From contig JAFRLF010000001.1 in assembly GCA_017431365.1 (NCBI GenBank), positions 1-52,003 of the forward strand: 52,003 bases of DNA, written 5' to 3'. This DNA is from Clostridia bacterium (GTDB lineage Bacteria; Bacillota; Clostridia; Christensenellales; Aristaeellaceae). The first letter of the stretch is position 1; each line of letters opens with the position of its first letter. Below, one piece after another: positions 12,489-51,879 of the stretch. The position numbers were made by a program, and so were the translations under genes. Below the pieces are notes generated by a model. It worked only from the letters and a program-made list of their open reading frames with translations. It was not told the DNA's origin and made no database searches.

Positions 12489-13970
12489 ATGATAGAACGC
12501 TCAATTGAATATTACCAGGAGCTTGTCCACTCGTTAGCCGCCTTGCCGACAGAGGTAGAATGGGTTGAATTCAAAGTAAATAATAAAGATCCGGAACGGA
12601 TTGCGAAATATATCTCTGGATTAAGTAATGTGGCCACGCTTCTCGACCGGTCGAATGCCTACATTGTATGGGGAATTGAGAACGAAAGCCATAGAATCAT
12701 TGGCACAGATTTTGAATACAGAAAGGCGAAAAAGGGAAACCTGGAGTTGGAACTGTGGCTTGCGCAGCAAATCAATCCCAAGATCGGTTTTACTTTCCAT
12801 GAAGTACCTTATCGGGACGAGAGTGGAAGTATGATTCGTGTAACGCTGATTGAAATACCTTGTGCTGAAGGCGAACCGACCAGATATGGAAGTGTGGGTT
12901 ACATTCGTATCGGGAGCAATCTGAAACATTTATCAGAGTTCAAAGAGAAGGAAGCTGAACTTTGGAGAAAGTTTGACAAAACGCCCCTCGAAAAGAGAAT
13001 AGCCTATACAGAAGCCAGCGAGGATGACGTAGTTACTCTGTTGGATTATCCCGGTTATTATCGCAAACTGGGATTGCCGATTCCTGGTAATCGGGATAAG
13101 GTACTGCATGATTTGAGCGACGAGAAATTTATATATAAAAACGATGGTGGTACATGGGATATCACGAATTATGGTGCGTTAATGATTGCCGTAAATCTGA
13201 AAAAGTTTGAACGACTGAGCAAACGTGTCGTCCGCGTCATTCGCTATCCGGACAAATCACGCCTAGGTGGAATCAGCGAGCGTGAGTTTTCTTCCGGATA
13301 CGTGATTTCTTTTGAGGAGATTGTAACTTATATTATGACAGTCATACCGCAAGAAGAGATCATGGAAAGAGGAATTCGCAGACAAAAGTACAACTTCCCA
13401 GAAAGTGCTATCCGTGAATTATTGGCAAATACATTGGTTCATCAGGCATTGGATCAATATGGCACAAACCCTATGATAGAAATTTTTGTGGATAGAATCG
13501 AGTTCTCCAATGCAGGCGCTCCTCTGGTGGCAATCGAACGTATTATTGATACCGTTCCTCTGTCCAGAAATGAAAATATGGCGGGATTCATGCATCGCTG
13601 TGGTATTTGCGAAGAACGCGGCAGTGGCTATGACAAGATTATTGCTGCCACGAGTGCAGATGCATTATTGGCTCCGAAAATCGAAAACCAAAATAATCAA
13701 TTTACAAAAGTAACGCTGTTCTCCAAGGTTCCCTTTGAGTTGACAGCAAAGGAGGATCGCGTTCGTACCTGCTATATGTTCGCATGTCTTGCATTCGTCA
13801 ATTCGTCATCGATTTCCAATGCGGATATCCGGTCTGCGTTTGGATTGGAAGAGAGTGAAAAAGTCAAAGCGTCTCGGGTGATACGCGATACAATAAGCTC
13901 AAAACTGATCAAGCCTGTGGATCCTTCAACGGCGCCGAGATATATGAGATATGTCCCTTTCTGGGCTTGA
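12489..13970 (+). CDS. AlbA_2 (Schlafen-like) N-terminal domain / HATPase_c_4 C-terminal domain protein (putative ATP-dependent DNA-binding regulator)
   Basis: N-terminus EWVEFKVNN...ISGLSN (AlbA_2 signature), C-terminal HATPase_c_4-like region; low GC (~42%); AAAGGAGTG RBS. Confidence 0.7.
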   Translation: MIERSIEYYQELVHSLAALPTEVEWVEFKVNNKDPERIAKYISGLSNVATLLDRSNAYIVWGIENESHRIIGTDFEYRKAKKGNLELELWLAQQINPKIGFTFHEVPYRDESGSMIRVTLIEIPCAEGEPTRYGSVGYIRIGSNLKHLSEFKEKEAELWRKFDKTPLEKRIAYTEASEDDVVTLLDYPGYYRKLGLPIPGNRDKVLHDLSDEKFIYKNDGGTWDITNYGALMIAVNLKKFERLSKRVVRVIRYPDKSRLGGISEREFSSGYVISFEEIVTYIMTVIPQEEIMERGIRRQKYNFPESAIRELLANTLVHQALDQYGTNPMIEIFVDRIEFSNAGAPLVAIERIIDTVPLSRNENMAGFMHRCGICEERGSGYDKIIAATSADALLAPKIENQNNQFTKVTLFSKVPFELTAKEDRVRTCYMFACLAFVNSSSISNADIRSAFGLEESEKVKASRVIRDTISSKLIKPVDPSTAPRYMRYVPFWA

Positions 13971-35340: not shown

Positions 35341-36723
35341 TCAATCAAACAGGCTATTTAGCGCAATAAGTATTATTTTCTCATCTGTATTCTTTTTTTC
35401 AAATCCTGATCTGGAGAAAAAACCATATTTATATGGATGCAACGGCGTCTTCTCTACCTGTTCGATCTCCTTCCGGATCATGCTGTCCGTCAGAATGCCT
35501 TTTCGGAATTTGACTTCATAGAAAATATAACCCTCCGGGTCCAGCGTCACAACATCAAACTCGCCATTAGTCCTGGTTTCCTTATCGTCATACCAGTATT
35601 TTCCGATCTTGTCAAATATCTCAGGCAACAGGCCCCGGCGGTTTTGTCGGATCAGGTATTGCCTGCAGATGACTTCAAACGACTGCGGTACGAACTGACT
35701 TTCAAAGTCTTCCTGAATATAGCGATCCCAGAAGACCTCCCGATCCATCACGCTGAGTTGCGAGGCGTACCGAAAGATATATCTGTAAAAAAAGCGCGAC
35801 AACTGATCCGTTATAACATATCCCGCTTTCCGGCGATTGTCTTCATCATTGATCGGGACACGCTTCTCAACGACTTCCATACGGATCAGCCGCTCCAGTA
35901 CATCCGCCAAAGTTGGACTGGATGAAACATGAGATTGCGAAAGGATATCGCTGAATCTGGTATATCCCCTTGAGAGCGTCTCAAACACTTCGTTTGCGTT
36001 GGTTATTTTCGATACCTCAGATTTGAGAAACATCGTCACTTCATTTTCCAGCCGCGCGCCGCAAGAGGCGATCAATTCAATTATATTTTCCCGAACCGAT
36101 TTGTTACAGTCGATCAATCGATTATAATAGGGAATTCCTCCAAACACGCTGAACAATCTCACTTTGTCTTCCGGTGAAAAATCAGGGTAAAAAAGGGCTG
36201 ATTCCCAATAATCCATGGGCTTGAGATCAATCGTCAGGTCTATCCTTCCATATAAAGGGTTTTCCCTCATGAGAAGAGACTTCATGACATCCACAAAAGA
36301 ACCACAGATGATCAGTTTAAGCCTGGAAACCTCCCGGTACTTGTCGATCAACGCCTGAATAACGCTGTCCAAACCGGAAACACTGTCTCTCAAATAGGAG
36401 AACTCATCCAGCACCAGGACGATTTCTCTGTCCCTCGAGGCTTTAAAGATATATTCAAGACATGCCTCCATGTTTCCAAACGCCAGCGGCGGAAATTCAA
36501 AGGCCTCAGAAATCAATTCAGACAAGTTCGCAGCGTTGCTCAGCTCTGCCGTCTGCCTGCACTCATAATATATGCTTTTGACACCGCTTTCCCTCAGGCA
36601 CTGCTTGATCAGTTCGCTCTTGCCCACACGACGACGTCCATATACCAGCGCGGCGGCAAAACCCTGTCTGTCAAGCATTTTATGAAGGCGTTTGCGTTCC
36701 TCTTCCCGGCCAACGAATTTCAT
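35341..36723 (-). CDS. AAA ATPase (ATPase_2/archaeal-ATPase-like with DUF234 C-terminal domain)
   Basis: Walker A YGRRRVGKS, Walker B LVLDEFSY; low GC (~45%) relative to flanks. Confidence 0.75.
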   Translation of the reverse strand: MKFVGREEERKRLHKMLDRQGFAAALVYGRRRVGKSELIKQCLRESGVKSIYYECRQTAELSNAANLSELISEAFEFPPLAFGNMEACLEYIFKASRDREIVLVLDEFSYLRDSVSGLDSVIQALIDKYREVSRLKLIICGSFVDVMKSLLMRENPLYGRIDLTIDLKPMDYWESALFYPDFSPEDKVRLFSVFGGIPYYNRLIDCNKSVRENIIELIASCGARLENEVTMFLKSEVSKITNANEVFETLSRGYTRFSDILSQSHVSSSPTLADVLERLIRMEVVEKRVPINDEDNRRKAGYVITDQLSRFFYRYIFRYASQLSVMDREVFWDRYIQEDFESQFVPQSFEVICRQYLIRQNRRGLLPEIFDKIGKYWYDDKETRTNGEFDVVTLDPEGYIFYEVKFRKGILTDSMIRKEIEQVEKTPLHPYKYGFFSRSGFEKKNTDEKIILIALNSLFD

Positions 36724-36815: not shown

Positions 36816-36898
36816 ATTGCTCAGTTGTTTATTCATGGATTTACAATACCATATGTCTGGATTCTATACTATAATTTCTGCGCGGTCTTTCCATAAAG
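36816..36898. repeat. ~85-bp intergenic repeat element, copy A (second copy at 44320..44402, ~80% identical)
   Basis: Shared blocks TGCTCAGTTGTTT..CATG..., perfect 20-mer CTGGATTCTATACTATAATT, and GCGGT.TTTCCATAA; lies ~95-175 nt upstream of the minus-strand gene start at 36723. Confidence 0.8.
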
Positions 36899-37056
36899 CA
36901 AGTCAAGGCCAAAACACAGCGGCTTCTACCGTCTTGTTACTATCCTGTTCGCCGTCCAGATCCATAAAACGCGTAAACCGGCGCTTGTCTATGCGCCGGC
37001 TTTGTGATAATATATGTAAGGCTTATTTAATCAATCAGATAAGGAGTGACCCGACC

Positions 37057-38412
37057 ATGAAAAAAGCCCTGGCCCTGGTATTGGTTCTGCTGTTTACGGT
37101 TTCAGGCTGCGCCCTGGCCGACGGCGTCTGGATGCGTCAGCTCCCCCAGTACGTCTATACCAACGCCGTACTGATGAGCCCCGAATCCTACCCCGAGGTA
37201 CGGCTGACCACTCAGAGCATCTATGAATTCTTCAACACATACGACCCCGTGACGCCGACGTTCCTCTGCTTCCCCGGCCCGGAGAACGCCTATCCCGAGA
37301 ACTTTGACCTGGATTACGTTCATTACCTGGACGTGGACAACCACATCCAGTATTCGTATCAGGTGTTCGAGTCCAACTCCTTCGAGGAGTTCCTGAACAA
37401 GGCCGAATCGGACGACTATATCCTCCTGGACGGCGAGGACGACGTGGCCGTACGCATCGCTCCGGAAGAATTCAGGGTATACGGCATGATCGCCACCCGC
37501 GAATTCGGCCGCTCCTCGAAGCTGATCTTCCAGATCAAAATGGATCAGCTCGACAGCAAAATGCCCGCCGACACGATCATCAGCTCCCTTTCCGAGATCG
37601 GCCTCAAGGAAGCCGGCCGCATCCAGGCGGCCCTGCGCTACGAGACTTATCCCGATATGTCCGCCTTCAACAACTACGACGGCATTAAAATGCTGCACAC
37701 GAACGACTTTGATTATCTACTGAAGGTCGCCTTCCCGCAGTTTACGGTGGGAAATGTCACCGCTACTCCGTTCGTTTACAAATACATGTATGACGAGCTG
37801 GAGATCTGCTATGACTTGGGCGAGGGCAGATACGCCCAGGTCAACTACGCCATCGACGACAACCCCTATCCCATCTACCGCATGGAGAACGACGACCCGG
37901 ACGCTCAGGAGATCACCCTCTCCGACGGCAGCACCTGGTATATCTTTATGAACGGCCTGTCGGAATACGGCAAATCCACTTACGTCTACGCCTCCACGCC
38001 GATCGGCCATCAGAGCTACTGGGGCAATGACGAATTCCTCACCATTCATATCGACCTTGAGAAGCTGGAATGGCCCAACGTTGAGGAATTCATCGCCGAT
38101 CTTGAGAACCTCTACATGGGCAGCTTCGAGGCCGTGAGCGCCTCTTCCGACCCCTATGTGCCCAGCGTGGTCACGCCCGCTGCCAGCGCTCAGGAACCCG
38201 AACCGGCGGTTCAGGAGCCGGCAGGCGAGCCCCAGCAGGCGCCCGCGGCCAGTGAAAACTGGGTTTGCCCCGAATGCGGCACGGAAAACAGCGGCAATTT
38301 CTGCACCGAGTGCGGCACAGCCCGTCCCGTTTCCAACGAATGGACCTGCCCCGAGTGCGGCCGCGTCAACGACGGCAAGTTCTGCCCCGAGTGCGGCACC
38401 GCGAAGCCCTGA
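37057..38412 (+). CDS. Lipoprotein with C-terminal tandem zinc-ribbon motifs
   Basis: Lipobox LFTVSGC after signal peptide; C-terminus NWVCPECGTENSGNFCTECGTARP / EWTCPECGRVNDGKFCPECGTAKP (two 25-aa repeats, nt 38254-38328 and 38335-38409); AAGGAGTG RBS. ORF track start 36817 is spurious upstream read-through. Confidence 0.7.
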   Translation: MKKALALVLVLLFTVSGCALADGVWMRQLPQYVYTNAVLMSPESYPEVRLTTQSIYEFFNTYDPVTPTFLCFPGPENAYPENFDLDYVHYLDVDNHIQYSYQVFESNSFEEFLNKAESDDYILLDGEDDVAVRIAPEEFRVYGMIATREFGRSSKLIFQIKMDQLDSKMPADTIISSLSEIGLKEAGRIQAALRYETYPDMSAFNNYDGIKMLHTNDFDYLLKVAFPQFTVGNVTATPFVYKYMYDELEICYDLGEGRYAQVNYAIDDNPYPIYRMENDDPDAQEITLSDGSTWYIFMNGLSEYGKSTYVYASTPIGHQSYWGNDEFLTIHIDLEKLEWPNVEEFIADLENLYMGSFEAVSASSDPYVPSVVTPAASAQEPEPAVQEPAGEPQQAPAASENWVCPECGTENSGNFCTECGTARPVSNEWTCPECGRVNDGKFCPECGTAKP

Positions 38413-38514: not shown

Positions 38515-40053
38515 TCACTCGAACCACTCGAGCCTCTGATTCACGTACGACGCGATGTCGTTCATCTCGCCGGCGATGTACTCGTCCCAGCGGCTGCCCG
38601 TCGCCTCGTTGAACGCGGCCGCCAGATCGCCCACCGAGGCGATGCCCCCGCTGTGCCCGCGCACGTAGATCCCAAGGCCCCTGATGAAATCCTCCCGCCC
38701 CATGAGCGCGCGTATCTCGTGAAGGACGGCCGCTCCCCGGTCGATGACGACGATCCCGTACTCGGACAGGGAATCGAAGCGCGCCGCCGCGCTGTCCGGC
38801 TTGAGCCCTCCGGGGATCGTGATCCTCAGCGACTCAAGCACGAGCGCGTTGAGCGCCCTGAGATAGGCCGCGTAACCGTCCCGCTCCTCCGTGAGGAGAA
38901 GCGCCAGATACGCGCACAGGCTGTCCCGCAGCCATGGCTCCCGATCGGAATCGGAGCCCACGGCCACGCCAAAGTACTGTCCCACACACAGGCGGTCGAC
39001 GGCGGTGCGAAGGTCGTCCTCCCGACCGCGCTTCAGCAGGGACACGGGCACCTGCACGAGTCCCGTCCGGCTCAGTCCGTCGCGCGCGTCGTCCGTGACG
39101 ACGAGGGTCAGCCCTTCCTGTCCGCAGGATCCGAACCAGCTCTCACAGGCGTTCATGGCAAAGAGCGCCTCGTCCAGGATGGCCCGCGCGTGCGCGCGCG
39201 TGTCCGCCCACGCCGTCAAAGGCAGGCCCGCGTCCGTCTCCCCCTCCGCGGAAACCAGGCCCCTGTGAATGACCATGGCAAAATCCCGGGCGGAAACGGC
39301 GGTAAAGTGATGCGCGACCTGGCCGTCAGACGCCGCGGCCGAGCCGTCGGAGCGGCCGGTCGCGCAGACGGCATAACCTTCGGGCAGAGTCAGGGTCACG
39401 TCGTAGTCGCTCGCGTCGAAGAGCATGGGATCGATGCACAGCGGCCACGCGCTGAGCGCGTAGTCCGCGGCATAGGCGTCGTACGCCGCGCATATGGGAT
39501 AAAATCCGTTCAAGCGCCAGCCCATCTCCCCCGCGCCGATGGCCCACCCGTTCCAGGAGAGCAGCAGCGTATAATCCAGCCTGATCTCGGCTTCCTGACC
39601 CGGCTCCAGCGCGCACTCCACTCGCATGAACTGCTCATACGCTCCGCTCACGCTCCAAACTGCCGCTTCGCCGTCCACGGCGACGGAAAAAAAATCGACG
39701 CCTCCCGGCGCGAATCCCGCCGGAAAGACGTCGTCCCATTCGCCCTCCTCGATGGGGACGGCCTCCTGCCTGCGCAGCGTGTTGGCGTAGAGGCAGAGCC
39801 ATACCGCGTCGACACTTCGCCCCGTCGCGTTGACGAGGTGTATCGTCTCGCTCACATAAAGGGCCTGCGCGTCGATATCCGCCGCGCAGTTGATCGTATA
39901 TCTGTTTCTCTCCGGCGCGCCGGCGTCTTCGCCCTCGCCCAGCGCCACGAGCGTCACCAGGGAGTATCCCAGGCTCAGCACCATCAGCACGGCCAGTACG
40001 ATCGCCACGATCTTGCGCATGCGCGCCCTTCTCCCGAGGCCCGGTTTTTTCAT
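38515..40053 (-). CDS. Hypothetical membrane-anchored extracytoplasmic protein (512 aa)
   Basis: N-terminal signal anchor (IVAIVLAVLMVLSLGYSLV). Large Ala/Gly/Asp-rich ectodomain with no confident motif; HEIRA is not an HExxH. Start immediately after the dusB stop; alternative start at 40020. Confidence 0.55.
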   Translation of the reverse strand: MKKPGLGRRARMRKIVAIVLAVLMVLSLGYSLVTLVALGEGEDAGAPERNRYTINCAADIDAQALYVSETIHLVNATGRSVDAVWLCLYANTLRRQEAVPIEEGEWDDVFPAGFAPGGVDFFSVAVDGEAAVWSVSGAYEQFMRVECALEPGQEAEIRLDYTLLLSWNGWAIGAGEMGWRLNGFYPICAAYDAYAADYALSAWPLCIDPMLFDASDYDVTLTLPEGYAVCATGRSDGSAAASDGQVAHHFTAVSARDFAMVIHRGLVSAEGETDAGLPLTAWADTRAHARAILDEALFAMNACESWFGSCGQEGLTLVVTDDARDGLSRTGLVQVPVSLLKRGREDDLRTAVDRLCVGQYFGVAVGSDSDREPWLRDSLCAYLALLLTEERDGYAAYLRALNALVLESLRITIPGGLKPDSAAARFDSLSEYGIVVIDRGAAVLHEIRALMGREDFIRGLGIYVRGHSGGIASVGDLAAAFNEATGSRWDEYIAGEMNDIASYVNQRLEWFE

Positions 40054-40056
40054 ATT

Positions 40057-41028
40057 TTATGACAGCCTCCTCAGATAATCCGTAAGCAGTTCGCCGAGCG
40101 CCTCAAGGGATTCGACGCTATTGACCTTCTCCCTGACGCGGGCGGCGCCGGGCATGCCCTGGATCGACCAGGCCACGTGCTTGCGCATCTCCCGCATGGC
40201 CAGGGGCTCTCCCAGCCAGTCCGCCTGCATGCGGGCGTGCCGAAGGATCAAACCGATGCGCTCCGCCGGAGAAGGCGGTGTCCACGGCTTGCCCTTCAGC
40301 GCGGCGAGGATCTCGGCAAACACCCAGGGATTGCCCTGCGCGCCCCGGCCGACGGCCACGCCGTCGCAGCCCGTCTCCCGGATCATGGAAAAATAGTCCT
40401 CTGCCGAGCGGACGTCCCCGTTGCCGATCACAGGAATGGTGACGGCTCTCTTCACTTCGGCGATCACGCGCCGATCCGCGCGCCCGGCGTACATCTGCGT
40501 CCGGGTCCGGGCATGCACCGTCACGGCCGCCGCGCCCTCGTCCTGCGCGATGCGCGCGATCTGCGCGGCGTTGACGCTGTCCTCATCCCAGCCGGAGCGG
40601 ATTTTCACCGTCACGGGGAGGGAGCTGCCCTTCACGGCGGCTCTGACGACCTGCCGCGCCCGCTCAGGCTCCCTCATCAGGGCCGAGCCTTCGCCGTTCC
40701 CGACGATCTTGTGCGCCGGACAGCCCATGTTGATATCGACGAAGTCAAACCCCCGTCCGCTCAGGCGTCGGGCGGCCTCCTCTATATACTCCGGGTCTCT
40801 CCCGAACAGCTGCAGGCCGAGGACGCCTTCGTCCCCGCCTCTGGCGAGGATGGCGTCCATCGCCCGCGTGCCCTGGGGCGCGTAAACGTAACCCTTGGCC
40901 GAGAGCATCTCCGTCACGGCCCAGGCCGCGCCATTTTCAAAGCACAGGCGGCGCATGGGGCAGTCCGTCACGCCGGCCATGGGCGCCAGGCCCGCGCCGG
41001 GCGGCAGCTCAAGCGTTCCGATCCTCAT
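40057..41028 (-). CDS. dusB: tRNA-dihydrouridine synthase
   Basis: MRIGTLELPPGAGLAPMAGVTD..., FMN-binding TIM-barrel motifs (DINMGCP, catalytic Cys). The ORF track N-terminal extension (to 41277) lacks an RBS; the ATG at 41028 overlaps the upstream gene stop (ATGA). Confidence 0.85.
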   Translation of the reverse strand: MRIGTLELPPGAGLAPMAGVTDCPMRRLCFENGAAWAVTEMLSAKGYVYAPQGTRAMDAILARGGDEGVLGLQLFGRDPEYIEEAARRLSGRGFDFVDINMGCPAHKIVGNGEGSALMREPERARQVVRAAVKGSSLPVTVKIRSGWDEDSVNAAQIARIAQDEGAAAVTVHARTRTQMYAGRADRRVIAEVKRAVTIPVIGNGDVRSAEDYFSMIRETGCDGVAVGRGAQGNPWVFAEILAALKGKPWTPPSPAERIGLILRHARMQADWLGEPLAMREMRKHVAWSIQGMPGAARVREKVNSVESLEALGELLTDYLRRLS

Positions 41029-41582
41029 GTCGCCGGCTCTTCCTCCGTCTCCTCCACGATCAGCTTCGTCTGGACGAGGCGGTCGATCTTCCAGCGTCCG
41101 TCCGTCCGGACAAGGCGCACGGAATACCGACCCCCGAACCAGGCGGGCGGCGTCGCCGAAAGCGCTCCGGAGGAAACGAGGTCCTGCCTGTCGCTGTTGA
41201 CGCGGCCGGTGATCCGGGGCACGCGCTCGACGATGGTCGCCGTGGCGGTGTTCTCCCACGGCCAGGCCCACACCCACTCCAGCGACATGCGGTAATTGTA
41301 GTCCGTGACCGTATAATCCACATACGGCGAAGCCCCGCTCAGGCCGATGTTGAGCGTCTCGTCGGTCCTGAGGAAGTTTTCGGTAAAATAGCTGGCCAGC
41401 TCCTCCTCGCCGTCCCGCTGCAGGATGACCTTCACCCGCAGGGAGAGCCCGTCTTCGAGCAGGAGGTAAATGTTGGCCGTATTCATCGCCAGGTAGAACG
41501 CCAGGATCAGCACCGCCGCGATGACGGAAAACATCACCATGCGCTTGGCGACGAACGAAAGAAATCGATGCAAATACTTCAT
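41025..41582 (-). CDS. Hypothetical membrane-anchored protein (185 aa)
   Basis: Single TM (MVMFSVIAAVLILAFYLAM); starts 2 nt after the GH78 stop and ends overlapping the dusB start. Confidence 0.5.
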   Translation of the reverse strand: MKYLHRFLSFVAKRMVMFSVIAAVLILAFYLAMNTANIYLLLEDGLSLRVKVILQRDGEEELASYFTENFLRTDETLNIGLSGASPYVDYTVTDYNYRMSLEWVWAWPWENTATATIVERVPRITGRVNSDRQDLVSSGALSATPPAWFGGRYSVRLVRTDGRWKIDRLVQTKLIVEETEEEPAT

Positions 41583-41584
41583 AA

Positions 41585-44245
41585 TTACCTATTCACGTTG
41601 TCATATTGCCAGCTGAAGGCGTAGCTTCCGGAATCCAGCTCGATCATGGCGTCGTTTTCCGACTGCCACGCCCGGAAGACGCCCGTGATCTCCTCGCTCA
41701 GGATCTTGCCGTTGGCGCAGACCTGGCGCACGTCCGTGTTTTCGAGGATGAGCACGGCCGTCGTGCCGCCGGGGATCGAGACGTTCACATGGCGGGTGCC
41801 GTCCTCGTCGCGCCACTCCGAGCGCACGCGGCCGTAAGGCGTCATCTGCCAGGCCGAGACGAAGGACAGCTCCTCGATGGGGCGCGGATGGATGACCAGC
41901 TCGCGGTAGCCTGGCTTGGACATGTCGATGCCCGCCAGGCAGCGCATCATCCACTCGCCGATCGCGCCGTAAGCGTAATGGTTGTAGCTGTTCATGTCCT
42001 TCGACCAGAAAGTGCCGTCCGGCTTGATGCCGTCCCAGTGCTCCCACATGGTCGTGGCGCCCTTGGTCACGCCGTAGAGCCAGGAAGGGTAGTCCGCCTT
42101 CATGAAGAGGTGTCCCGCCACGTCGTGCGCGCCGCCTTCCGTCAGCGCCTTGCACAGATAAGGCGTGCCCACAAACCCCGTCGTCAGGTGGCCGCCGTTC
42201 TGTTCGATGAGCTCGCACAGCTCGCGCACCAGGCGCGGCCGGTCGGCCTCCTCGCACAGGTCAAAGAACAGCGTCAGCACGTAAGCCGTCTGCGTATGAA
42301 CGGCCAGCCGCCCGTTGGGCGTGATGAATTCCTGCCGGTAGGCCTTGACGATCCTGCGGTAGAGATTGCGCAGGTCCATGGCGTCCTTCTCGTAGCCCAG
42401 CACCTCCGCCGCGCGGCGGCACTCGCGCACGGAGTAGGCGTAAAACGCCGTGGCGATGAGCGTCCTGTCCGTCGCGCCCACATAGCTGCCCTCGTGGGCA
42501 TCCAGACCGAGCCAGTCGCCGAAGTGGAACCCCTGCGTCCAGAGGTCGTCGTCAGAATGCGCGGTGATGAAGTCGATCCACTTGCGCATCGACGGGTACT
42601 GCCGCTCCAGCACGCGCTGATCCGCGTAGCACTTGTACAGCGTCCAGGGCACGATGGTGGCAGCGTCGCCCCAGGCGGCGGAGCCGTAGGCGTCCTTGTT
42701 GAGCACCTGCGGCACGACGAAGGGCACGCCGCCGTCCTCGCGCTGATCAGCCGCCAGGTCCTTGAGCCATTCGGACAGCATCAGCGCGGAATCCATGTTG
42801 ATGCAGGCCGTCCGAGCGAAGATCTGGCAGTCGCCAGTCCAGCCCAGGCGCTCGTCGCGCTGCGGGCAGTCGGTGGGCACGTCCACAAAGTTCCCCCTCT
42901 GGCCCCACTGTATGTTGTGGAACAGCTGGTTGACGCGCTCGTCGGAGCACTCAAAGCCACTGGTGACCTGAATGTCCGAATGGATGACAACGCCGGCGAA
43001 GTCCTTGAGGCGGATCTCTCCCGGCCAGTTCTCCAGCCGGACGTAGCGGAAGCCGTAGAAGGTCTGTTCCGGCTCATAGGTCTCCTCGCCTTCGCCCTTC
43101 AGCGTGTATTTGAGCAGGGCCTGGGCGTTTCTGTAGTTCTCCGTATAGAAATTACCGTCCTTATCCAGGACCTCGGCATGGCTGACGGTGACGGTGCGCC
43201 CCGCCTCGCCGCGGACGGTGAACTTCAGCCAGCCGACCATATTCTGACCCATGTCGAGCACCGTCTCGCCCTTGGGCGTGGTGATGAGCGCCACGGGCGT
43301 GATGGCCATCTGCCGCCGGACGGGGTGATCCAGCTGCGCCACGATATGAACGTTCACGTCCGTCGTCAGCAGGGCGTCCGACCAGCCGCCGTCGTCAAAA
43401 CCCGGCTGATCCCAGCCCGGCGTCTCCAGGCGGGCGTCGTAGTGGGTGCCGTTATAGATGTCAGCGTACAGCACGGGCGTATGCTGCAGGGCTTTCCAGC
43501 TCCCGTCGGACAGAAGGGTCTCTTCCGTGCCGTCCTCATAGGTGACGACGATCTGACAGAGCAGTCCAAGCTGCGTGCCGTAGAAGTTGCGCTGGTCCTT
43601 GTACGCGAGGTAACCGCGATACCAGCCGTCCGCCAGGGAGCAGGCCACCGCGTTTTTCCCCGCCTGCATGAGCGCCGTCACGTCATAGGTCTGGTACTGA
43701 AGGCGGTTATGGTAGCTCGTCCAACCCGGGCTCAGGAGGTCCGGACTGACGGGTTTGCCGTTCAGCCTCAGCGCGTAAATGCCCAGAGCCGTGGCGTAGA
43801 CGCGCGCCCGCTTTATGGGCTTGTCCGGCAGCGTGAATTCCCTGCGCAGGCGCGGCGCGCTCTGCATTTTCGATATGTCCTCGTCCTGCGGCGCGCTGAT
43901 AAACTTCGCCTCAAAGGGCCGGCCCATAAGGCCCGTTTCAAAATACGCCGTCTCGCTCCACTCCACCTCGCGGCCGCGCTTGTCCCAGATGCGCACGCGC
44001 CAGGCGTAACGGGTCCGGGGCTCGAGAGCCGGCCCGTCATACGGGACGAGGACGGAATCCCGGCGGTTGACGCGGCCCGTGTCCCAGAGGGGCGCGTCGT
44101 CTTCCTCGCGGAAGACCTGCAGCCGGTAGGCCCCCTGCAGGATGGGCCCGCTGGACGTGATCTGCCAGCTGAAGCGCGGCTTCGGCTCGTCAAGGCCGAT
44201 CGGGTTGGTTTTGTACTCGGTCGTCAGATTCACCACACTGGACAT
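41585..44245 (-). CDS. alpha-L-rhamnosidase (GH78)
   Basis: 886 aa; N-terminus NPIGLDEPKPRFSWQ and overall block structure typical of bacterial GH78 rhamnosidases; GGAGGTG RBS. Confidence 0.85.
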   Translation of the reverse strand: MSSVVNLTTEYKTNPIGLDEPKPRFSWQITSSGPILQGAYRLQVFREEDDAPLWDTGRVNRRDSVLVPYDGPALEPRTRYAWRVRIWDKRGREVEWSETAYFETGLMGRPFEAKFISAPQDEDISKMQSAPRLRREFTLPDKPIKRARVYATALGIYALRLNGKPVSPDLLSPGWTSYHNRLQYQTYDVTALMQAGKNAVACSLADGWYRGYLAYKDQRNFYGTQLGLLCQIVVTYEDGTEETLLSDGSWKALQHTPVLYADIYNGTHYDARLETPGWDQPGFDDGGWSDALLTTDVNVHIVAQLDHPVRRQMAITPVALITTPKGETVLDMGQNMVGWLKFTVRGEAGRTVTVSHAEVLDKDGNFYTENYRNAQALLKYTLKGEGEETYEPEQTFYGFRYVRLENWPGEIRLKDFAGVVIHSDIQVTSGFECSDERVNQLFHNIQWGQRGNFVDVPTDCPQRDERLGWTGDCQIFARTACINMDSALMLSEWLKDLAADQREDGGVPFVVPQVLNKDAYGSAAWGDAATIVPWTLYKCYADQRVLERQYPSMRKWIDFITAHSDDDLWTQGFHFGDWLGLDAHEGSYVGATDRTLIATAFYAYSVRECRRAAEVLGYEKDAMDLRNLYRRIVKAYRQEFITPNGRLAVHTQTAYVLTLFFDLCEEADRPRLVRELCELIEQNGGHLTTGFVGTPYLCKALTEGGAHDVAGHLFMKADYPSWLYGVTKGATTMWEHWDGIKPDGTFWSKDMNSYNHYAYGAIGEWMMRCLAGIDMSKPGYRELVIHPRPIEELSFVSAWQMTPYGRVRSEWRDEDGTRHVNVSIPGGTTAVLILENTDVRQVCANGKILSEEITGVFRAWQSENDAMIELDSGSYAFSWQYDNVNR

Positions 44246-44319
44246 TTACAGACACCTCCGCGAAGATTTAAGCTGTTTTGTTTGTTTTCACTTCGGGCAG
44301 TTCGTCCTGGACGAAGGAC

Positions 44320-44466: not shown

Positions 44467-45546
44467 TTATTCCATGTTTTCCAGGATATCGATCATCTCA
44501 TTGACCATATCCTCGTCGTTCATGCGGAACTTGATGACCACGCGCCGCGACGCCGCCATGTCCACCGATCCGTTTGCGCGGTAGATCAGGTCGCTGTAGG
44601 AACGGCCGTTGACGGTGACCACCTGCTCAAGCTTGCGCTTGGCCTGGCGGGATATGCCTGTGAATTCATCGCTCAGGATGTACTCGAGCACAGCCCTCGC
44701 CCTGTCCTGGCTCAGCTGCATGTTGTCGAGGTAGGGCCCGGAGTTGTCCGTATGCCCCTCGATGATGATCTGGCTGACGTAAGGCGCGTAACGGTCGCTC
44801 ATCAGAACGGACAGGTAGCTGGGTATAAAGCTGTTGAGGAAGTCCTTGCCCACGTTCTTGAGGTCGTCCTTGCCTACGTCGAACATCATTTCGCTGGAAA
44901 AGACGATGGCGCCCGAATCGTCCACCGACGCGCCGGAGATATTGGACCTTGCCAGCGCGGAAACCAGTTCCTCGACGATGGCGCTGCGCACGCCCACGAG
45001 CCGGTCCAGCTGTTCCTGCTGGCGGATCAGCGTAGCGCGGGCCTCCTGCAGGTCCGCCTGCGACGTGCTGAGCTCGGCCTGAGAGGCGCTGAGCTCGGCC
45101 TGCGCGGTCTCGAGTTCCGTCTGAGCCGCCTCAAGGTCGCGCTTCTGGCTTTCAAGCGCCAGCTCCAGCTCCTCCAGCGTGTTCTGCTGGGCCAGATTCT
45201 GCGCCTGGCGGATCTCCAGTTCCGTCTCCGCGTCGCTGAGCTTCTGGGACTGCTCCTCCAGCTGGCGGTCGCGGTCGTCCAGGGTCTGCTGAGTCTTCGT
45301 CAGCTCGGCTTCTTTGTCCTCGAGGTCGCGCTGCGATTGAGAAAGCTGCGTCTCCTGCTCCTGCAAAAGGGCGCTCTGCCGGTCGAGCTCGGCCGTCTTG
45401 GTTTCAAGCATATCGTAGTACTGATACACGGCGTAGAACATGATGAGCACGAAGATCAGCATCAGTCCGCTCATCAGATCGGAAAAGCTGATCCACAGCG
45501 TGCCGCCGTCGCCCGAGCGGCGCTTGCTACGGCGCTGGCGCATCAC
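44467..45546 (-). CDS. MotB/ExbD-like stator protein with OmpA-like peptidoglycan-binding domain and ~150-aa periplasmic coiled coil
   Basis: TM with conserved protonatable Asp (WISFSDLMSGLMLIFVLIM), long heptad-rich Q/E/L segment, C-terminal OmpA_C motifs (IIIEGHTDNSGPYLDNMQLSQDRARAV...RRVVIKF); ATGA overlap with the upstream MotA-like gene. Confidence 0.8.
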   Translation of the reverse strand: MMRQRRSKRRSGDGGTLWISFSDLMSGLMLIFVLIMFYAVYQYYDMLETKTAELDRQSALLQEQETQLSQSQRDLEDKEAELTKTQQTLDDRDRQLEEQSQKLSDAETELEIRQAQNLAQQNTLEELELALESQKRDLEAAQTELETAQAELSASQAELSTSQADLQEARATLIRQQEQLDRLVGVRSAIVEELVSALARSNISGASVDDSGAIVFSSEMMFDVGKDDLKNVGKDFLNSFIPSYLSVLMSDRYAPYVSQIIIEGHTDNSGPYLDNMQLSQDRARAVLEYILSDEFTGISRQAKRKLEQVVTVNGRSYSDLIYRANGSVDMAASRRVVIKFRMNDEDMVNEMIDILENME

Positions 45547-47126
45547 TGACCACCCCCGCGGCCCATGTGTCGGGCGGCGTCTTCAAGGAACTGAGACGTC
45601 TGCTCCATGTAATCCACGAGCTGGCCGGTCTGCTTGGCATACTGCCGCGCGGCGTCCTCCATGATGGCGGGCATGTCCTTGACCGAGTCGCGGATGCCCT
45701 CCATGAGGCGGGTCAGATCGTCGATGATGTCCTGCATGTTCTGGTCGAACATGCCGAAGGCGTGCTGCAGGTCCTTGTTGACGTCCTTGGTAAAGGCCCG
45801 GTGCGATTCCTGCAGCGCCTCGCCGCTCTGCCGCACCTCGCCGGCCACCTTCTGAAGCGCGGAAGTGGAGAGGGCGCTGTTTTCCGTATAAGCCTGCGTA
45901 AAGGCGTCCATGCGCGTCTGGAAGGAGTCCACCTCGCGCAAAAAGTCGCTCTGCATCTGGCTGATCTGGGAGATATACGCCGCCAGCTGATGGGCCACCT
46001 GCTCCATGCTCTTGATGTTGCCCGCCACCGCGGCGTAACTGTCCTCCACGCGCTGCTGCGCGCCGCCCAGCCGCGTGAGATAGCCGTCGAACTTCACGAT
46101 CAGGGATTCGGACATCTGCTCGATCTCGACGATATCCCTCGACACGCGGTTCAGGCCGTCGATGTTGGCGTTGACCGTCTCCTGCGTCTGCTCATGCCAC
46201 GCGCAGGTCTTGTCGATCATGGTCGCCAGCTGGACGAACTTCCCCTGCAGGGAGGCGTTCATGTTCTCCACGAACTTGTTGACGATGATGTCGAGCCCGC
46301 GGATCTGCTCGCGCGCCGCCACGGTCACGAAGTTGTCCAGGCTCTCCTGCAGGGGCTGCAGGGCCAGCTCCATCTCGCTGCCGATCCGGGCCGCCAGGTC
46401 CCCCGTGATGTCCTGCGCCAGGGCGTGGATCATCTGGGTCTGTTCCTGCTGATAGATGGCGATCTGGGTGATGGGGTCGACGGTGGACATGTGCGCCTGA
46501 GAGGACATGGCGTCGTAAAAGGCCTGCAGCGCCTTGCGCGCGGAGCCCTGGGTCGAGCGCAGGATCAGCGAGAAGAACACGGAGCTAATCACGCCCACGA
46601 TGGACGTGGCGAAGGCGTACCTCATGCCGTCCATGAGTACGCGTATGGCCTCCATCGTGGCGTCTGAACTGTCCAGATTGAAGTCGGCCAGGCCGAGGAT
46701 GATGCCGATCAGCGTGCCCAAAAAACCAAGCGAGACCAGAATGCCGGGCAGCGCGTCCGCGAAGGCGGAAAACCCGGGGTCGAAGATCGCGGTGTCCTCG
46801 TTGATGTAATCGTCTATGGGGCTGGCGTTGTGGTACTCGTCGTCGGCGAAGAGGCGGCTGTTCAGGTACTCGCTCCAGGGCGTGGTCAGCGGCCCCCGCC
46901 CGAGAAAGCGCTTGTCCTGCCAGATCTCCTTGTTGTCGTTGCGGCGGATGCGCCGGGTGCCCTTTTTCAGCTGACGCCTGCACTGCATGACCGGGACGAT
47001 GCACTTCAGTATCCCGACCACGAACAGGACGATCATCGCGACATACACCAGAATCTGGGCGGCGCTGCGGATGCCGTCGCCCATCTGCGAAGTGAGTGCG
47101 CTCCATATGCTGTTCAAAGTCATCAT
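45543..47126 (-). CDS. MotA/TolQ/ExbB-family proton-channel protein with ~335-aa cytoplasmic coiled-coil tail (ZorA-like layout)
   Basis: TM1, basic cytoplasmic loop, TM2 with LGFLGTLIGI signature, TM3 (AFATSIVGVISSVFFSLIL), then long helical Q/A/E-rich tail. ORF track TTG at 47195 lacks an RBS; the ATG pair at 47126/47123 is preceded by AGAAAGGA. Confidence 0.75.
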   Translation of the reverse strand: MMTLNSIWSALTSQMGDGIRSAAQILVYVAMIVLFVVGILKCIVPVMQCRRQLKKGTRRIRRNDNKEIWQDKRFLGRGPLTTPWSEYLNSRLFADDEYHNASPIDDYINEDTAIFDPGFSAFADALPGILVSLGFLGTLIGIILGLADFNLDSSDATMEAIRVLMDGMRYAFATSIVGVISSVFFSLILRSTQGSARKALQAFYDAMSSQAHMSTVDPITQIAIYQQEQTQMIHALAQDITGDLAARIGSEMELALQPLQESLDNFVTVAAREQIRGLDIIVNKFVENMNASLQGKFVQLATMIDKTCAWHEQTQETVNANIDGLNRVSRDIVEIEQMSESLIVKFDGYLTRLGGAQQRVEDSYAAVAGNIKSMEQVAHQLAAYISQISQMQSDFLREVDSFQTRMDAFTQAYTENSALSTSALQKVAGEVRQSGEALQESHRAFTKDVNKDLQHAFGMFDQNMQDIIDDLTRLMEGIRDSVKDMPAIMEDAARQYAKQTGQLVDYMEQTSQFLEDAARHMGRGGGQ

Positions 47127-47410
47127 TCCTTTCTCAGGAGCGGCGGAAAAGCCGGATAACGCGTCAGATAACGGCGGAACGTAAACCGCCGGCAATGCTC
47201 AGACGAAAGAATTGAAGCGATTGTTCAAACTACGCCATATTTATTCTATCATCTTTCTGTTAAAGGAATATTTGCTGCCCGTTTGCCGCTTCCCGGACAG
47301 GTTTTACCCGCCTGTGATTGAAATACCGCCGGCGATATGATAGGATATTATATTATCTGCGCAATCAGACCTTTTCATTCGCTGAGTGTTTTGCATAAAC
47401 GAGGTGCCCT

Positions 47411-50693: not shown

Positions 50694-50880
50694 ACCAAAC
50701 TCCTCCTTGTAAGTTAGTTCGGCAAGTCCGGTTCCGCCTGAGACGCCAGGCCTCAGTCCCGCGTCACCTCTTGCCGTTGTGACGCCCTTATTATATAATG
50801 TGTTTATCTCATTGTAAATCTCATCATCGGCATGATAGAGCGTTCTATTCATGCCTTTGCGGCATAATACGGAGGCATAT

Positions 50881-51381
50881 ATGGGCAGAAAATCGACGCG
50901 CGAGAACAAGACCGCCTATCAGCTGGCCCGTGAAAAACGCGGCCTCACCATAGAAAAGGCCGGCGAAGCCCTGGGAGGCCTGACGTCTGACAGGATTTCC
51001 AAAATCGAAAACGGCAGCGTCCACGTACAGCCGGAGGACGTCGTTCTCATGGCCGAATGCTACAAGGCCCCCGAACTGTGCAACTATTACTGCACACACG
51101 AGTGCGCCATCGGAGAAAAGACCGTCGAAGCCGTCGAGATCAAATCCTTTGCCCAGATCGCGATCGAAACGCTGAATTCGCTCAACAAGATGACGCGTCT
51201 GAGCAACCGCCTTCTGGAGATCGTGGAAGACGGCCAGGTCCGTCCGGACGAGAGCGACGACTTCCTCGTCATCAAATCGACGCTCGACAAGATCGCGGCG
51301 TCGGTCTCGGCTCTGCAGCTGTGGGTAGACCGGCAAATCGCCGAGGGAAAGCTCGACAGGGAGCTGTTCAGCAAATCATAA
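50881..51381 (+). CDS. XRE-family helix-turn-helix transcriptional regulator
   Basis: HTH_3-like N-terminus (TAYQLAREKRGLTIEKAGEALGGLTSDRISKIENG); GGAGG RBS 5 nt before the ATG at 50881. Confidence 0.7.
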   Translation: MGRKSTRENKTAYQLAREKRGLTIEKAGEALGGLTSDRISKIENGSVHVQPEDVVLMAECYKAPELCNYYCTHECAIGEKTVEAVEIKSFAQIAIETLNSLNKMTRLSNRLLEIVEDGQVRPDESDDFLVIKSTLDKIAASVSALQLWVDRQIAEGKLDRELFSKS

Positions 51382-51522: not shown

Positions 51523-51879
51523 ATGCTTTTGACCTATCGAGAATGTCTCAGCAAATACGGCAGCGATTATCAGCTTAAGAAAAAAATCAAAAACGGCACT
51601 CTCTTCATAAAAGAAAAAGGAGTATACTCCACCCAGCGCAACACAGCTGAAATTGCCGTAATTATGTTGAAATATCCAAAAACAGTATGCACCGGCAAAA
51701 GCGCCTTTTATTACCATGCCCTGACTGACGAAATTCCCGATTACTATTACCTTGCCAGTCGTCGGACGGATACCAGAATACAGGATCCCCGCGTCAGACA
51801 ATCATTTCAAAAAGACGATATATTCGAAGCCGGCATTACAGACATCCAATATAATAATTCCTCAGATAAGGTACAATAA
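51523..51879 (+). CDS. AbiEi-like (type IV TA antitoxin N-terminal domain) small protein
   Basis: GTLFIKEKGVYST...PKTVCTGKSAFYYHALTDEIPD matches the AbiEi_4 pattern (G.L.R..RGvY ... P.aV.s..SAl..hgLtd); low GC; AAAGGAGGG RBS. Confidence 0.5.
   Translation: MLLTYRECLSKYGSDYQLKKKIKNGTLFIKEKGVYSTQRNTAEIAVIMLKYPKTVCTGKSAFYYHALTDEIPDYYYLASRRTDTRIQDPRVRQSFQKDDIFEAGITDIQYNNSSDKVQ

Follow-up and report, generated by a model that had tools for sequence, protein, structure and literature searches.

To our knowledge, ZorAB is the newest of the 5:2 rotary motors, and it has so far been known solely as the sensor core of anti-phage systems of double-membrane bacteria. In the Zorya systems of types I and II, whose motor complexes are represented by the structures 8qyd, 8vvn and 8vvi, a ZorA subunit with three transmembrane (TM) helices, a membrane-proximal cytoplasmic domain, Pro/Thr/Ser channel residues and a long helical tail is combined with a ZorB subunit bearing a TM aspartate and an OmpA-type domain with an N-x-x-L-S-x-x-R motif, both being encoded by adjacent and translationally coupled genes, A first and then B. 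These systems have a patchy distribution (PMC11890865) and are under-represented in single-membrane bacteria (PMC11946911). Here, we describe two genes, A and B, that share all of the above architectural features and are located in a 52,003-nucleotide (nt) stretch of the genome of a Clostridia bacterium (contig JAFRLF010000001.1), which is referred to as the window throughout. The pair departs from Zorya in lacking ZorC/D, ZorE or ZorF/G, in the helical insert of about 155 residues that, as a stalk, sets the wall-binding domain of B apart from its membrane helix (these being directly fused in EcZorB), in its usual arrangement as A-B-C with a third gene, C, and in a vertical and lineage-wide inheritance within a lineage of gut and rumen Clostridia. 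Because A-B is a vertical chromosomal fixture of a large Christensenella-like lineage, usually in the order A-B-C, we propose that it may operate as a constitutive envelope-to-cytoplasm transducer rather than as a mobile, self-contained anti-phage system, a reading to which we assign a probability of roughly 50%.

The sequence comparisons clearly place A and B as homologues of ZorA and ZorB, and not among the MotAB- or ExbBD-like proteins. The original prediction, which had been made from the letters of the window, gave correct coordinates for both open reading frames (ORFs), which lie on the minus strand, and described them as a MotA/MotB-like (Zorya-like) pair; the profile searches that it recommended bear out the likeness to ZorA and ZorB, since the Zor models were the best-scoring ones on both proteins among Pfam and PADLOC. 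PADLOC ZorA models reached 2.2e-25 on A, and the ZorB1 model PDLC00609 matched B in two stretches at 8.8e-67. The best sequence matches among solved structures were, for both proteins, the ZorAB cryo-EM complexes 8vvn, 8vvi and 8qyd. A profile built from 15 diverse A homologues aligned with EcZorA (8qyd_A) at 3.3e-27, B matched the ZorB chains 8vvi_A (3e-13) and 8qyd_F (2e-9), and the top Foldseek matches of the B model were all ZorB chains, with MotS, MotB and OmpA domains ranking lower. Pfam itself returned OmpA and a MotA_ExbB match barely over its cut-off (26.5 vs 22.9 bits) on the pair, while MotB_plug stayed at 17.4 bits on B, under the cut-off of 24 bits, and no ExbD-family match to B was found in Pfam or PADLOC. 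The NCBIfam ZorA and ZorB models all scored below their curated cut-offs (best ZorA 75.6 vs 100 bits, best ZorB 66.3 vs 400). A precomputed Pfam match to PF28082 (ZorA-like_t1) was found on P0001, the database protein corresponding to A, and on most A homologues. This family name is without functional information, because only its accession and name are visible, and a full-text literature search for "ZorA-like" found no paper using the term. Likewise, a full-text search combining Zorya with Christensenellales or Clostridia retrieved no paper describing the A-B family, and the Zorya structure papers, together with a stator-evolution preprint, are silent on effector-less ZorAB in Clostridia.

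The boundaries of A differ from those first assigned (table 1). The maximal ORF spans 45543-47195 and encodes 550 amino acids (aa) from a TTG codon, and this TTG had been taken as the start; the true start is likely the ATG at 47126, giving 527 aa, because an RBS-like (ribosome-binding-site-like) GAAAGGA precedes it and because both the length of P0001 (527 aa, 100% identity to A) and the alignment of homologues agree with it. The junction with B, described earlier as an ATGA overlap, reads CAG-TGA-TG, that is, GTGATG, where B starts at GTG or ATG and runs over the stop codon of A, the shared letters being GTGA or TGATG. The topology proposed for A withstood the hydropathy and periodicity analyses. 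There are three hydrophobic segments (residues 18-50, 121-151 and 170-191 in the 527-aa numbering); the strongly basic stretch RRQLKKGTRRIRR directly follows TM1 and is itself followed by a conserved domain of about 75 residues, and the signature SLGFLGTLIG sits in TM2. Residues P127, F135, T138 and S175 showed no variation across the 15 diverse homologues and correspond, in the family-profile alignment, to P136, I144, T147 and S184 of EcZorA, whose functional roles were established by mutation (Hu et al., PMC11946911). The cytoplasmic tail contains three prolines only and exhibits a significant hydrophobic periodicity of 3.5 residues (equalled by 2 of 1000 shuffles). It contains, immediately past TM3, an invariant D-P-x-T-Q-I-x-I-Y-Q-Q-E-Q-T segment, and the family profile aligned it with the ZorA tails of 8qyd and 8vvn as well as with all-helical bundle proteins.

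The features anticipated for B, namely a TM aspartate in SFSDLM, a long helical region of coiled-coil type and an OmpA domain, were likewise recovered with Pfam and AlphaFold2. B has a single TM segment, and its D23, which was invariant in 17 homologues, aligns with Asp26 of EcZorB, a residue essential in that protein (PMC11946911); Asp23 is thus a candidate ion-carrying residue. Residues 45-200 are rich in Leu, Glu, Gln and Ala, include no proline and a single glycine, and show a heptad-type periodicity equalled by 9 of 1000 shuffles. The AlphaFold2 model predicts helices at residues 21-113, 120-184 and 186-200 with a mean predicted local distance difference test score (pLDDT) of 77. This insert splits the PADLOC ZorB1 match, which resumes at B residue 172, equivalent to profile position 47 of 232, whereas the wall-binding domains of EcZorB are joined to the TM helices without a linker, a point stressed by Hu et al. 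(PMC11946911). Among homologues, the stalk region exhibits insertions and deletions (indels) of 7, 14 and 21 residues that are confined to one half and uncompensated in the other, and in most loci the length of B is between 328 and about 420 aa, as judged from maximal-ORF calls. Because these indels are one-sided and multiples of the heptad, the stalk appears to be better described as a parallel coiled coil in extended form, adjustable in length and measuring about 23 nm at most at full extension, than as a hairpin. The C-terminal domain matched Pfam OmpA at 2.3e-9 (residues 221-329), and in its NMQLSQDRA segment the residues N275, L278 and R282 are invariant and correspond to the wall-binding N152, L155 and R159 of EcZorB, forming the motif N-x-x-L-S-x-x-R-A. 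As a separate observation, B also matched the TM and coiled-coil part at the N-terminus of the NCBIfam models NF006542 and NF006543 ("PRK09039 peptidoglycan-binding protein") at 6e-17, below cut-off, so the TM/coiled-coil/OmpA architecture may occur in other phyla.

The distribution of the pair is what most sets it apart from Zorya. A scan of one genome per species with two exact peptide patterns detected a relative in at least 173 species-representative genomes, from which 80 loci were kept for locus analysis. All 80 derive from Clostridia, many labelled Christensenella-like or Christensenellales. Hundreds of full-length A homologues of about 505-555 aa were found, assigned, where named, to metagenome-assembled genomes of Clostridia, Christensenellaceae or Eubacteriales. 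The original prediction had singled out the A-B pairing as a feature to follow, and it is conserved in 79 of the 80 loci, the sole exception being a contig end. The other flanks differ from locus to locus and are of housekeeping type (dnaA-dnaN-mnmE, mnmA, dus, groES/EL, sugar kinases). The pairwise identities of A follow those of the adjacent MnmA (Spearman 0.71, 120 pairs) and Dus (0.60, 78 pairs), as well as those of B (0.82) and C (0.84). Within the window's own clade, A, B and C are 60-72% identical to the window proteins, and the neighboring Dus and M1-like proteins 43-50%. A tblastn search with A drew a blank in both 72,556 plasmids and 50,697 phage genomes, and IMG/VR contigs contained no relative of it. 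At the level of species sampling, this distribution is consistent with a conserved chromosomal function transmitted by vertical descent, and the defence role suggested at the outset finds no support in it.

We also searched the surroundings of A-B for the components by which Zorya is defined. Neither the window nor the 80 related genomes contained a ZorC, ZorD, ZorE, ZorF or ZorG gene nearby, in agreement with the original prediction that the known partners are missing. PADLOC detected no Zorya partner among the window neighbors, reporting AbiEi and a weak RmrA-like helix-turn-helix (HTH) match only. The co-occurrence of effector genes elsewhere in Clostridia, which had been anticipated as a possibility, was found at none of the 80 loci, where no nuclease or helicase family or cluster recurs. 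The same genomes, and the window, offered no flagellar, chemotaxis or Tol/Ton context, as had been stated of flagellar genes for the window. The neighbors that do recur across the 80 loci are C, MnmA, Dus, a rhamnosidase and a coiled-coil protein. Flotillin, LmbE, XRE and AbiEi, the upstream neighbors in the window, were considered as partners and rejected, given that none of them recurs in related loci. Because the partner genes are missing and the NCBIfam scores remain below cut-offs, we do not file A-B as a Zorya subtype, an assignment that had been left as an option.

The downstream side of B had not been described before, and it matters for the interpretation. The notion of a two-gene module stands as far as the A-B pair is concerned and is doubtful as regards its extent, since C directly follows B in 62 of the 80 loci and lies one rhamnosidase further on in the window. 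In total, 73 of the 80 loci have C, 62 of them directly after B (with gaps mostly of 0-130 nt) and 11 beyond an inserted rhamnosidase, as in the window. No C lies nearby in L029, L033 and L058, three loci of A-B-rhamnosidase type whose sequence continues downstream, nor in the metagenome locus L004. A 221-aa gene after B in L007 was tried as C and rejected, the C of that locus lying about 2.4 kilobases (kb) further on. The C proteins are 41-54% identical to that of the window where A is only 33-43% identical. In the AlphaFold2 model (pLDDT 90), residues 2-55 form a long helix at the N-terminus, which contains the TM segment and reaches past the membrane ahead of an NTF2-like cone, and the N-terminus is expected inside and the domain outside because basic residues precede the TM segment. 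Compared with folds in the PDB, C resembles bitopic proteins such as VirB8/PrgL/TraM/DotI, the intermembrane domain of ARC6/PARC6 and the C-terminal domain of Tim44, in which a membrane helix at the N-terminus likewise precedes an NTF2-like cone across the membrane. These comparators are 7-17% identical to C, which has no secretion-system or division genes near it. As the NTF2 fold is widespread, the fold match does not indicate function. No PADLOC or NCBIfam model matched C, and a C profile search gathered 429 cluster representatives. Two distant relatives (L096 4775-5599, P0437; L099 611-1474, P0376) carry a C-terminal SH3_3 domain and adjoin Dus, with no ZorAB-like genes, by which the C-Dus synteny seems older than the association with A-B. 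Within the Clostridia lineage, the tight linkage of C to A-B is suggestive of a partnership.

Taken as a machine, A-B is well supported by homology as a ZorAB-type A5B2 motor that is ion-driven and anchored to the wall, its stoichiometry and rotation being carried over from the solved relatives. By homology, five A subunits would surround two B subunits in a 5:2 rotary motor, ions would cross at a site formed by Asp23 of B and Thr138-Ser175 of A, and the OmpA-type domain, borne on a stalk of variable length, would fix B to the cell wall. Ion flow would then turn the A pentamer together with its 335-residue cytoplasmic helical tail, the tail could act on a cytoplasmic partner encoded away from A-B, and the output might be to survey or maintain an envelope that is thin-walled and atypical. 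The type of envelope concerned is illustrated by Christensenella minuta, a cultured representative of the group, which stains Gram-negative and yet is without lipopolysaccharide (LPS) or outer-membrane genes (PMC11448272).

Several points weigh against the transducer reading. The ZorA tail recruits effectors in Zorya, and the conserved tail of A would also fit a defence function with unlinked effectors; immunity is, moreover, compatible with vertical inheritance. The carrier count of the genome scan is a lower bound and has no denominator. The Ca2+ site of EcZorA is partly retained in the A family, E86 being Glu in most members and otherwise Ala, and E89, in a further difference from Zorya, being replaced by Asn. 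In the AlphaFold2 monomer model, B is interrupted at residues 113-120 by a break of low confidence, with which the stalk could also fold back. Most contigs of distant C relatives, about 30% identical, are short, and where they extend upstream, neither A nor B is present there. C thus belongs to an older envelope protein family and may be a mere syntenic neighbor of A-B, and the link between A-B and C stays unproven because such relatives occur without the pair.

The foremost alternative is a minimal or new Zorya subtype, in which A-B would sense wall damage inflicted by phage, and either the tail would activate effectors encoded elsewhere or the motor would depolarize the membrane. The sole characterized relatives of the pair are the ZorAB of Zorya, and the motor residues and long tail that it retains are both required for Zorya defence (PMC11946911). 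The "[system]_other" rules of PADLOC ask for two co-localized genes (PMC8565338), by which A-B would probably be flagged, and the window has an XRE gene and an AbiEi-like ORF at a distance of about 4-5 kb from the pair. These two genes are not conserved neighbors, however, and ZorAB alone is insufficient for defence in the known systems (PMC8565338, PMC11946911). The missing ZorC-G and the lack of any recurrent nuclease or helicase further oppose a subtype, as do the lineage-wide occurrence in housekeeping synteny with a descent consistent with vertical inheritance, the empty plasmid, phage and viral collections and the NCBIfam scores under cut-off. On balance, we regard a Zorya subtype as rather unlikely, with an appreciable chance left to it, and a constitutive envelope role as somewhat more likely than defence. 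If A-B does defend against phage, it would constitute a type of Zorya found in single-membrane bacteria and relying on unlinked effectors.

A different arrangement is suggested by gene order. In a three-part force transducer resembling TolQ-TolR-TolA or ExbB-ExbD-TonB, A-B would energize C, which would act on a wall or outer-layer target. Both of those systems have genes for a 5:2-type motor followed by one for a single-pass protein with its N-terminus inside, and the A-B-C order, on one strand and with short gaps in 62 of the 80 genomes, is like that of tolQ-tolR-tolA. The predicted orientation of C with one TM helix running past the membrane, its divergence in step with A (rho 0.84) and the wall-binding SH3_3 domains of its distant relatives would agree with such a role. 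Against it, B is of ZorB/OmpA type and not of ExbD/TolR type, the fold of C is NTF2-like and not that of TonB or of the TolA C-terminal domain, C relatives are found without A-B, and the four loci named above have no C nearby. The long cytoplasmic tail of A, absent from the Tol/Ton pattern, would be left without a role. Tol/Ton systems act on outer-membrane partners, whereas Christensenella is reported to be without LPS/outer-membrane genes (PMC11448272). We consider this arrangement improbable.

A flagellar or other motility stator of MotAB/MotPS type, which would share with A-B the ion-driven pair, the TM aspartate and the OmpA-like wall anchor (the periplasmic domain of Bacillus subtilis MotS being a lower-ranked fold match) and to which the MotA_ExbB match just over cut-off, the weak MotB_plug match and database names such as "MotA/TolQ/ExbB proton channel" and "chemotaxis protein MotB" would point, is already largely refuted and very improbable, given that A has three TM segments, where MotA has four, and a membrane-proximal domain that is ZorA-like and differs from the cytoplasmic domain of MotA, that B has no credible plug, that ZorA/ZorB models and structures match far better than those of MotA/MotB or MotS, and that genes for flagella or chemotaxis are absent from the window and the neighborhoods examined.

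Returning to the transducer reading, a bolder version of it would make A-B, possibly with C, an undescribed functional class of 5:2 ion-driven motor: an ancestral housekeeping machine of the Christensenella-like lineage that couples an ion gradient to an envelope process in thin-walled cells without an outer membrane, with an evolvable B stalk and C as an extracytoplasmic partner. We advance this version tentatively and judge it unlikely. Were it true, Zorya would be a defence-specialized offshoot of a broader family of ZorAB-type motors. The pair allows the ZorA tail's role to be tested without a nuclease attached, and likewise the reading of the wall by a motor in a cell without an outer membrane. 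Relatives of Christensenella are heritable, health-associated gut bacteria, and a lineage-defining envelope machine would bear on their biology.

The genes around A-B-C in the window are a mixed set. Divergent from A on its 5' side are genes for an SH3_3 and PIG-L/LmbE protein, a Band_7/flotillin protein and an XRE HTH protein, followed by a truncated AbiEi-like ORF, a list of neighbors that the original prediction had given correctly. On the 3' side of B, on the same strand, follow a GH78 rhamnosidase, C, Dus and an M1-peptidase-like membrane protein, and the rest of the window is devoted to sugar utilization and housekeeping, including fucose isomerase, GH88, an ABC transporter and YchF. A scan for consensus promoters and terminators gave nothing usable on the A-B strand; as the promoter-like matches lie on the plus strand only, no promoter was assigned to A-B.

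Table 1. Positions in the window of genes A, B and C, their parts and the associated features
Feature	Position	Strand	Basis
Gene A, ZorA-like subunit, 527 aa	45543..47126	minus	maximal ORF reaches TTG at 47195
A TM2, short outer loop and TM3, ion-channel core, residues 121-191	46554..46766	minus	hydropathy, EcZorA alignment
A cytoplasmic helical tail, residues 192-527, ~335 aa	45546..46553	minus	composition, periodicity, alignment to ZorA tails
Gene B, ZorB-like subunit, 359 aa from GTG or 358 aa from next ATG	44467..45546	minus	ORF, PADLOC, structure matches
B transmembrane helix, residues 16-43, WISFSDLM with Asp23	45418..45501	minus	aligns with EcZorB FWISYADLM
B extracytoplasmic helical stalk, coiled-coil type, residues 45-200	44947..45414	minus	split ZorB1 profile, AlphaFold2, periodicity
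B OmpA-type peptidoglycan-binding domain, residues 206-359	44470..44931	minus	Pfam OmpA
Gene C, 185-aa single-pass membrane protein, extracytoplasmic NTF2-like domain, candidate accessory component	41025..41582	minus	
GH78 alpha-L-rhamnosidase, 886 aa, no visible signal peptide, between B and C	41585..44245	minus	five rhamnosidase Pfam domains, 4.8e-119
Divergent intergenic region 5' of A, probable promoter region shared with opposite SH3_3/LmbE gene	47127..47410	.	AT-rich

The rhamnosidase is located between B and C, or right after B, in 15 of the 80 related genomes, including the window's clade (rhamnosidase loci L001-L006, L013-L026, L029, L033 and L058). Its copies look cytoplasmic and are 42-75% identical across related loci, for which reason the insertion appears old and stable; it is a lineage-specific insertion, probably outside the motor, with no evident tie to it in function. 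The enzyme was rejected as an "effector", being missing from most A-B loci and separated from B by an AT-rich spacer of 221 nt in the window. This spacer holds a perfect palindrome, TTCGTCC-A-GGACGAA (window ~44299-44313, minus strand), which is operator-like and may regulate the rhamnosidase gene.

The recurrent coiled-coil protein, here called X, has about 540-600 aa and directly follows C or mnmA in 24 of the 80 loci (e.g., L009 14610-16226 and L090 6966-8687). Its N-terminus carries a TM helix and its C-terminus a conserved beta-rich domain, and it also has a long, repetitive coiled coil that is extracellular; alongside B and C it adds to the "envelope protein" theme around the motor. Its PADLOC matches to JetC/LmuB were dismissed as coiled-coil artefacts, and it is neither the M1-like protein of the window nor present elsewhere in it. 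That M1-peptidase-like protein (38515-40053, minus strand) has an N-terminal membrane anchor and comes after Dus, a synteny shared within the window's clade.

The match of the AbiEi-like ORF (51523-51879, plus strand) to PADLOC (1.7e-48) is confined to the N-terminal 114 positions of a profile of about 180, and stop codons come after the ORF, which is probably a truncated antitoxin or regulator gene; the XRE-family gene (50851-51381) adjoins it. Farther away, a Schlafen/AlbA_2 and HATPase_c_4 protein (12489-13970, plus strand) is encoded in a patch of low G+C content (0.476 vs about 0.6 around it), which suggests horizontal acquisition. A protein with ATPase_2 and DUF234 domains, of the "archaeal ATPase" type (35341-36723, minus strand), adjoins YchF, and an ORF of 531 aa on the opposite strand (36817-38412, plus) encodes a C-terminal double zinc-ribbon domain.

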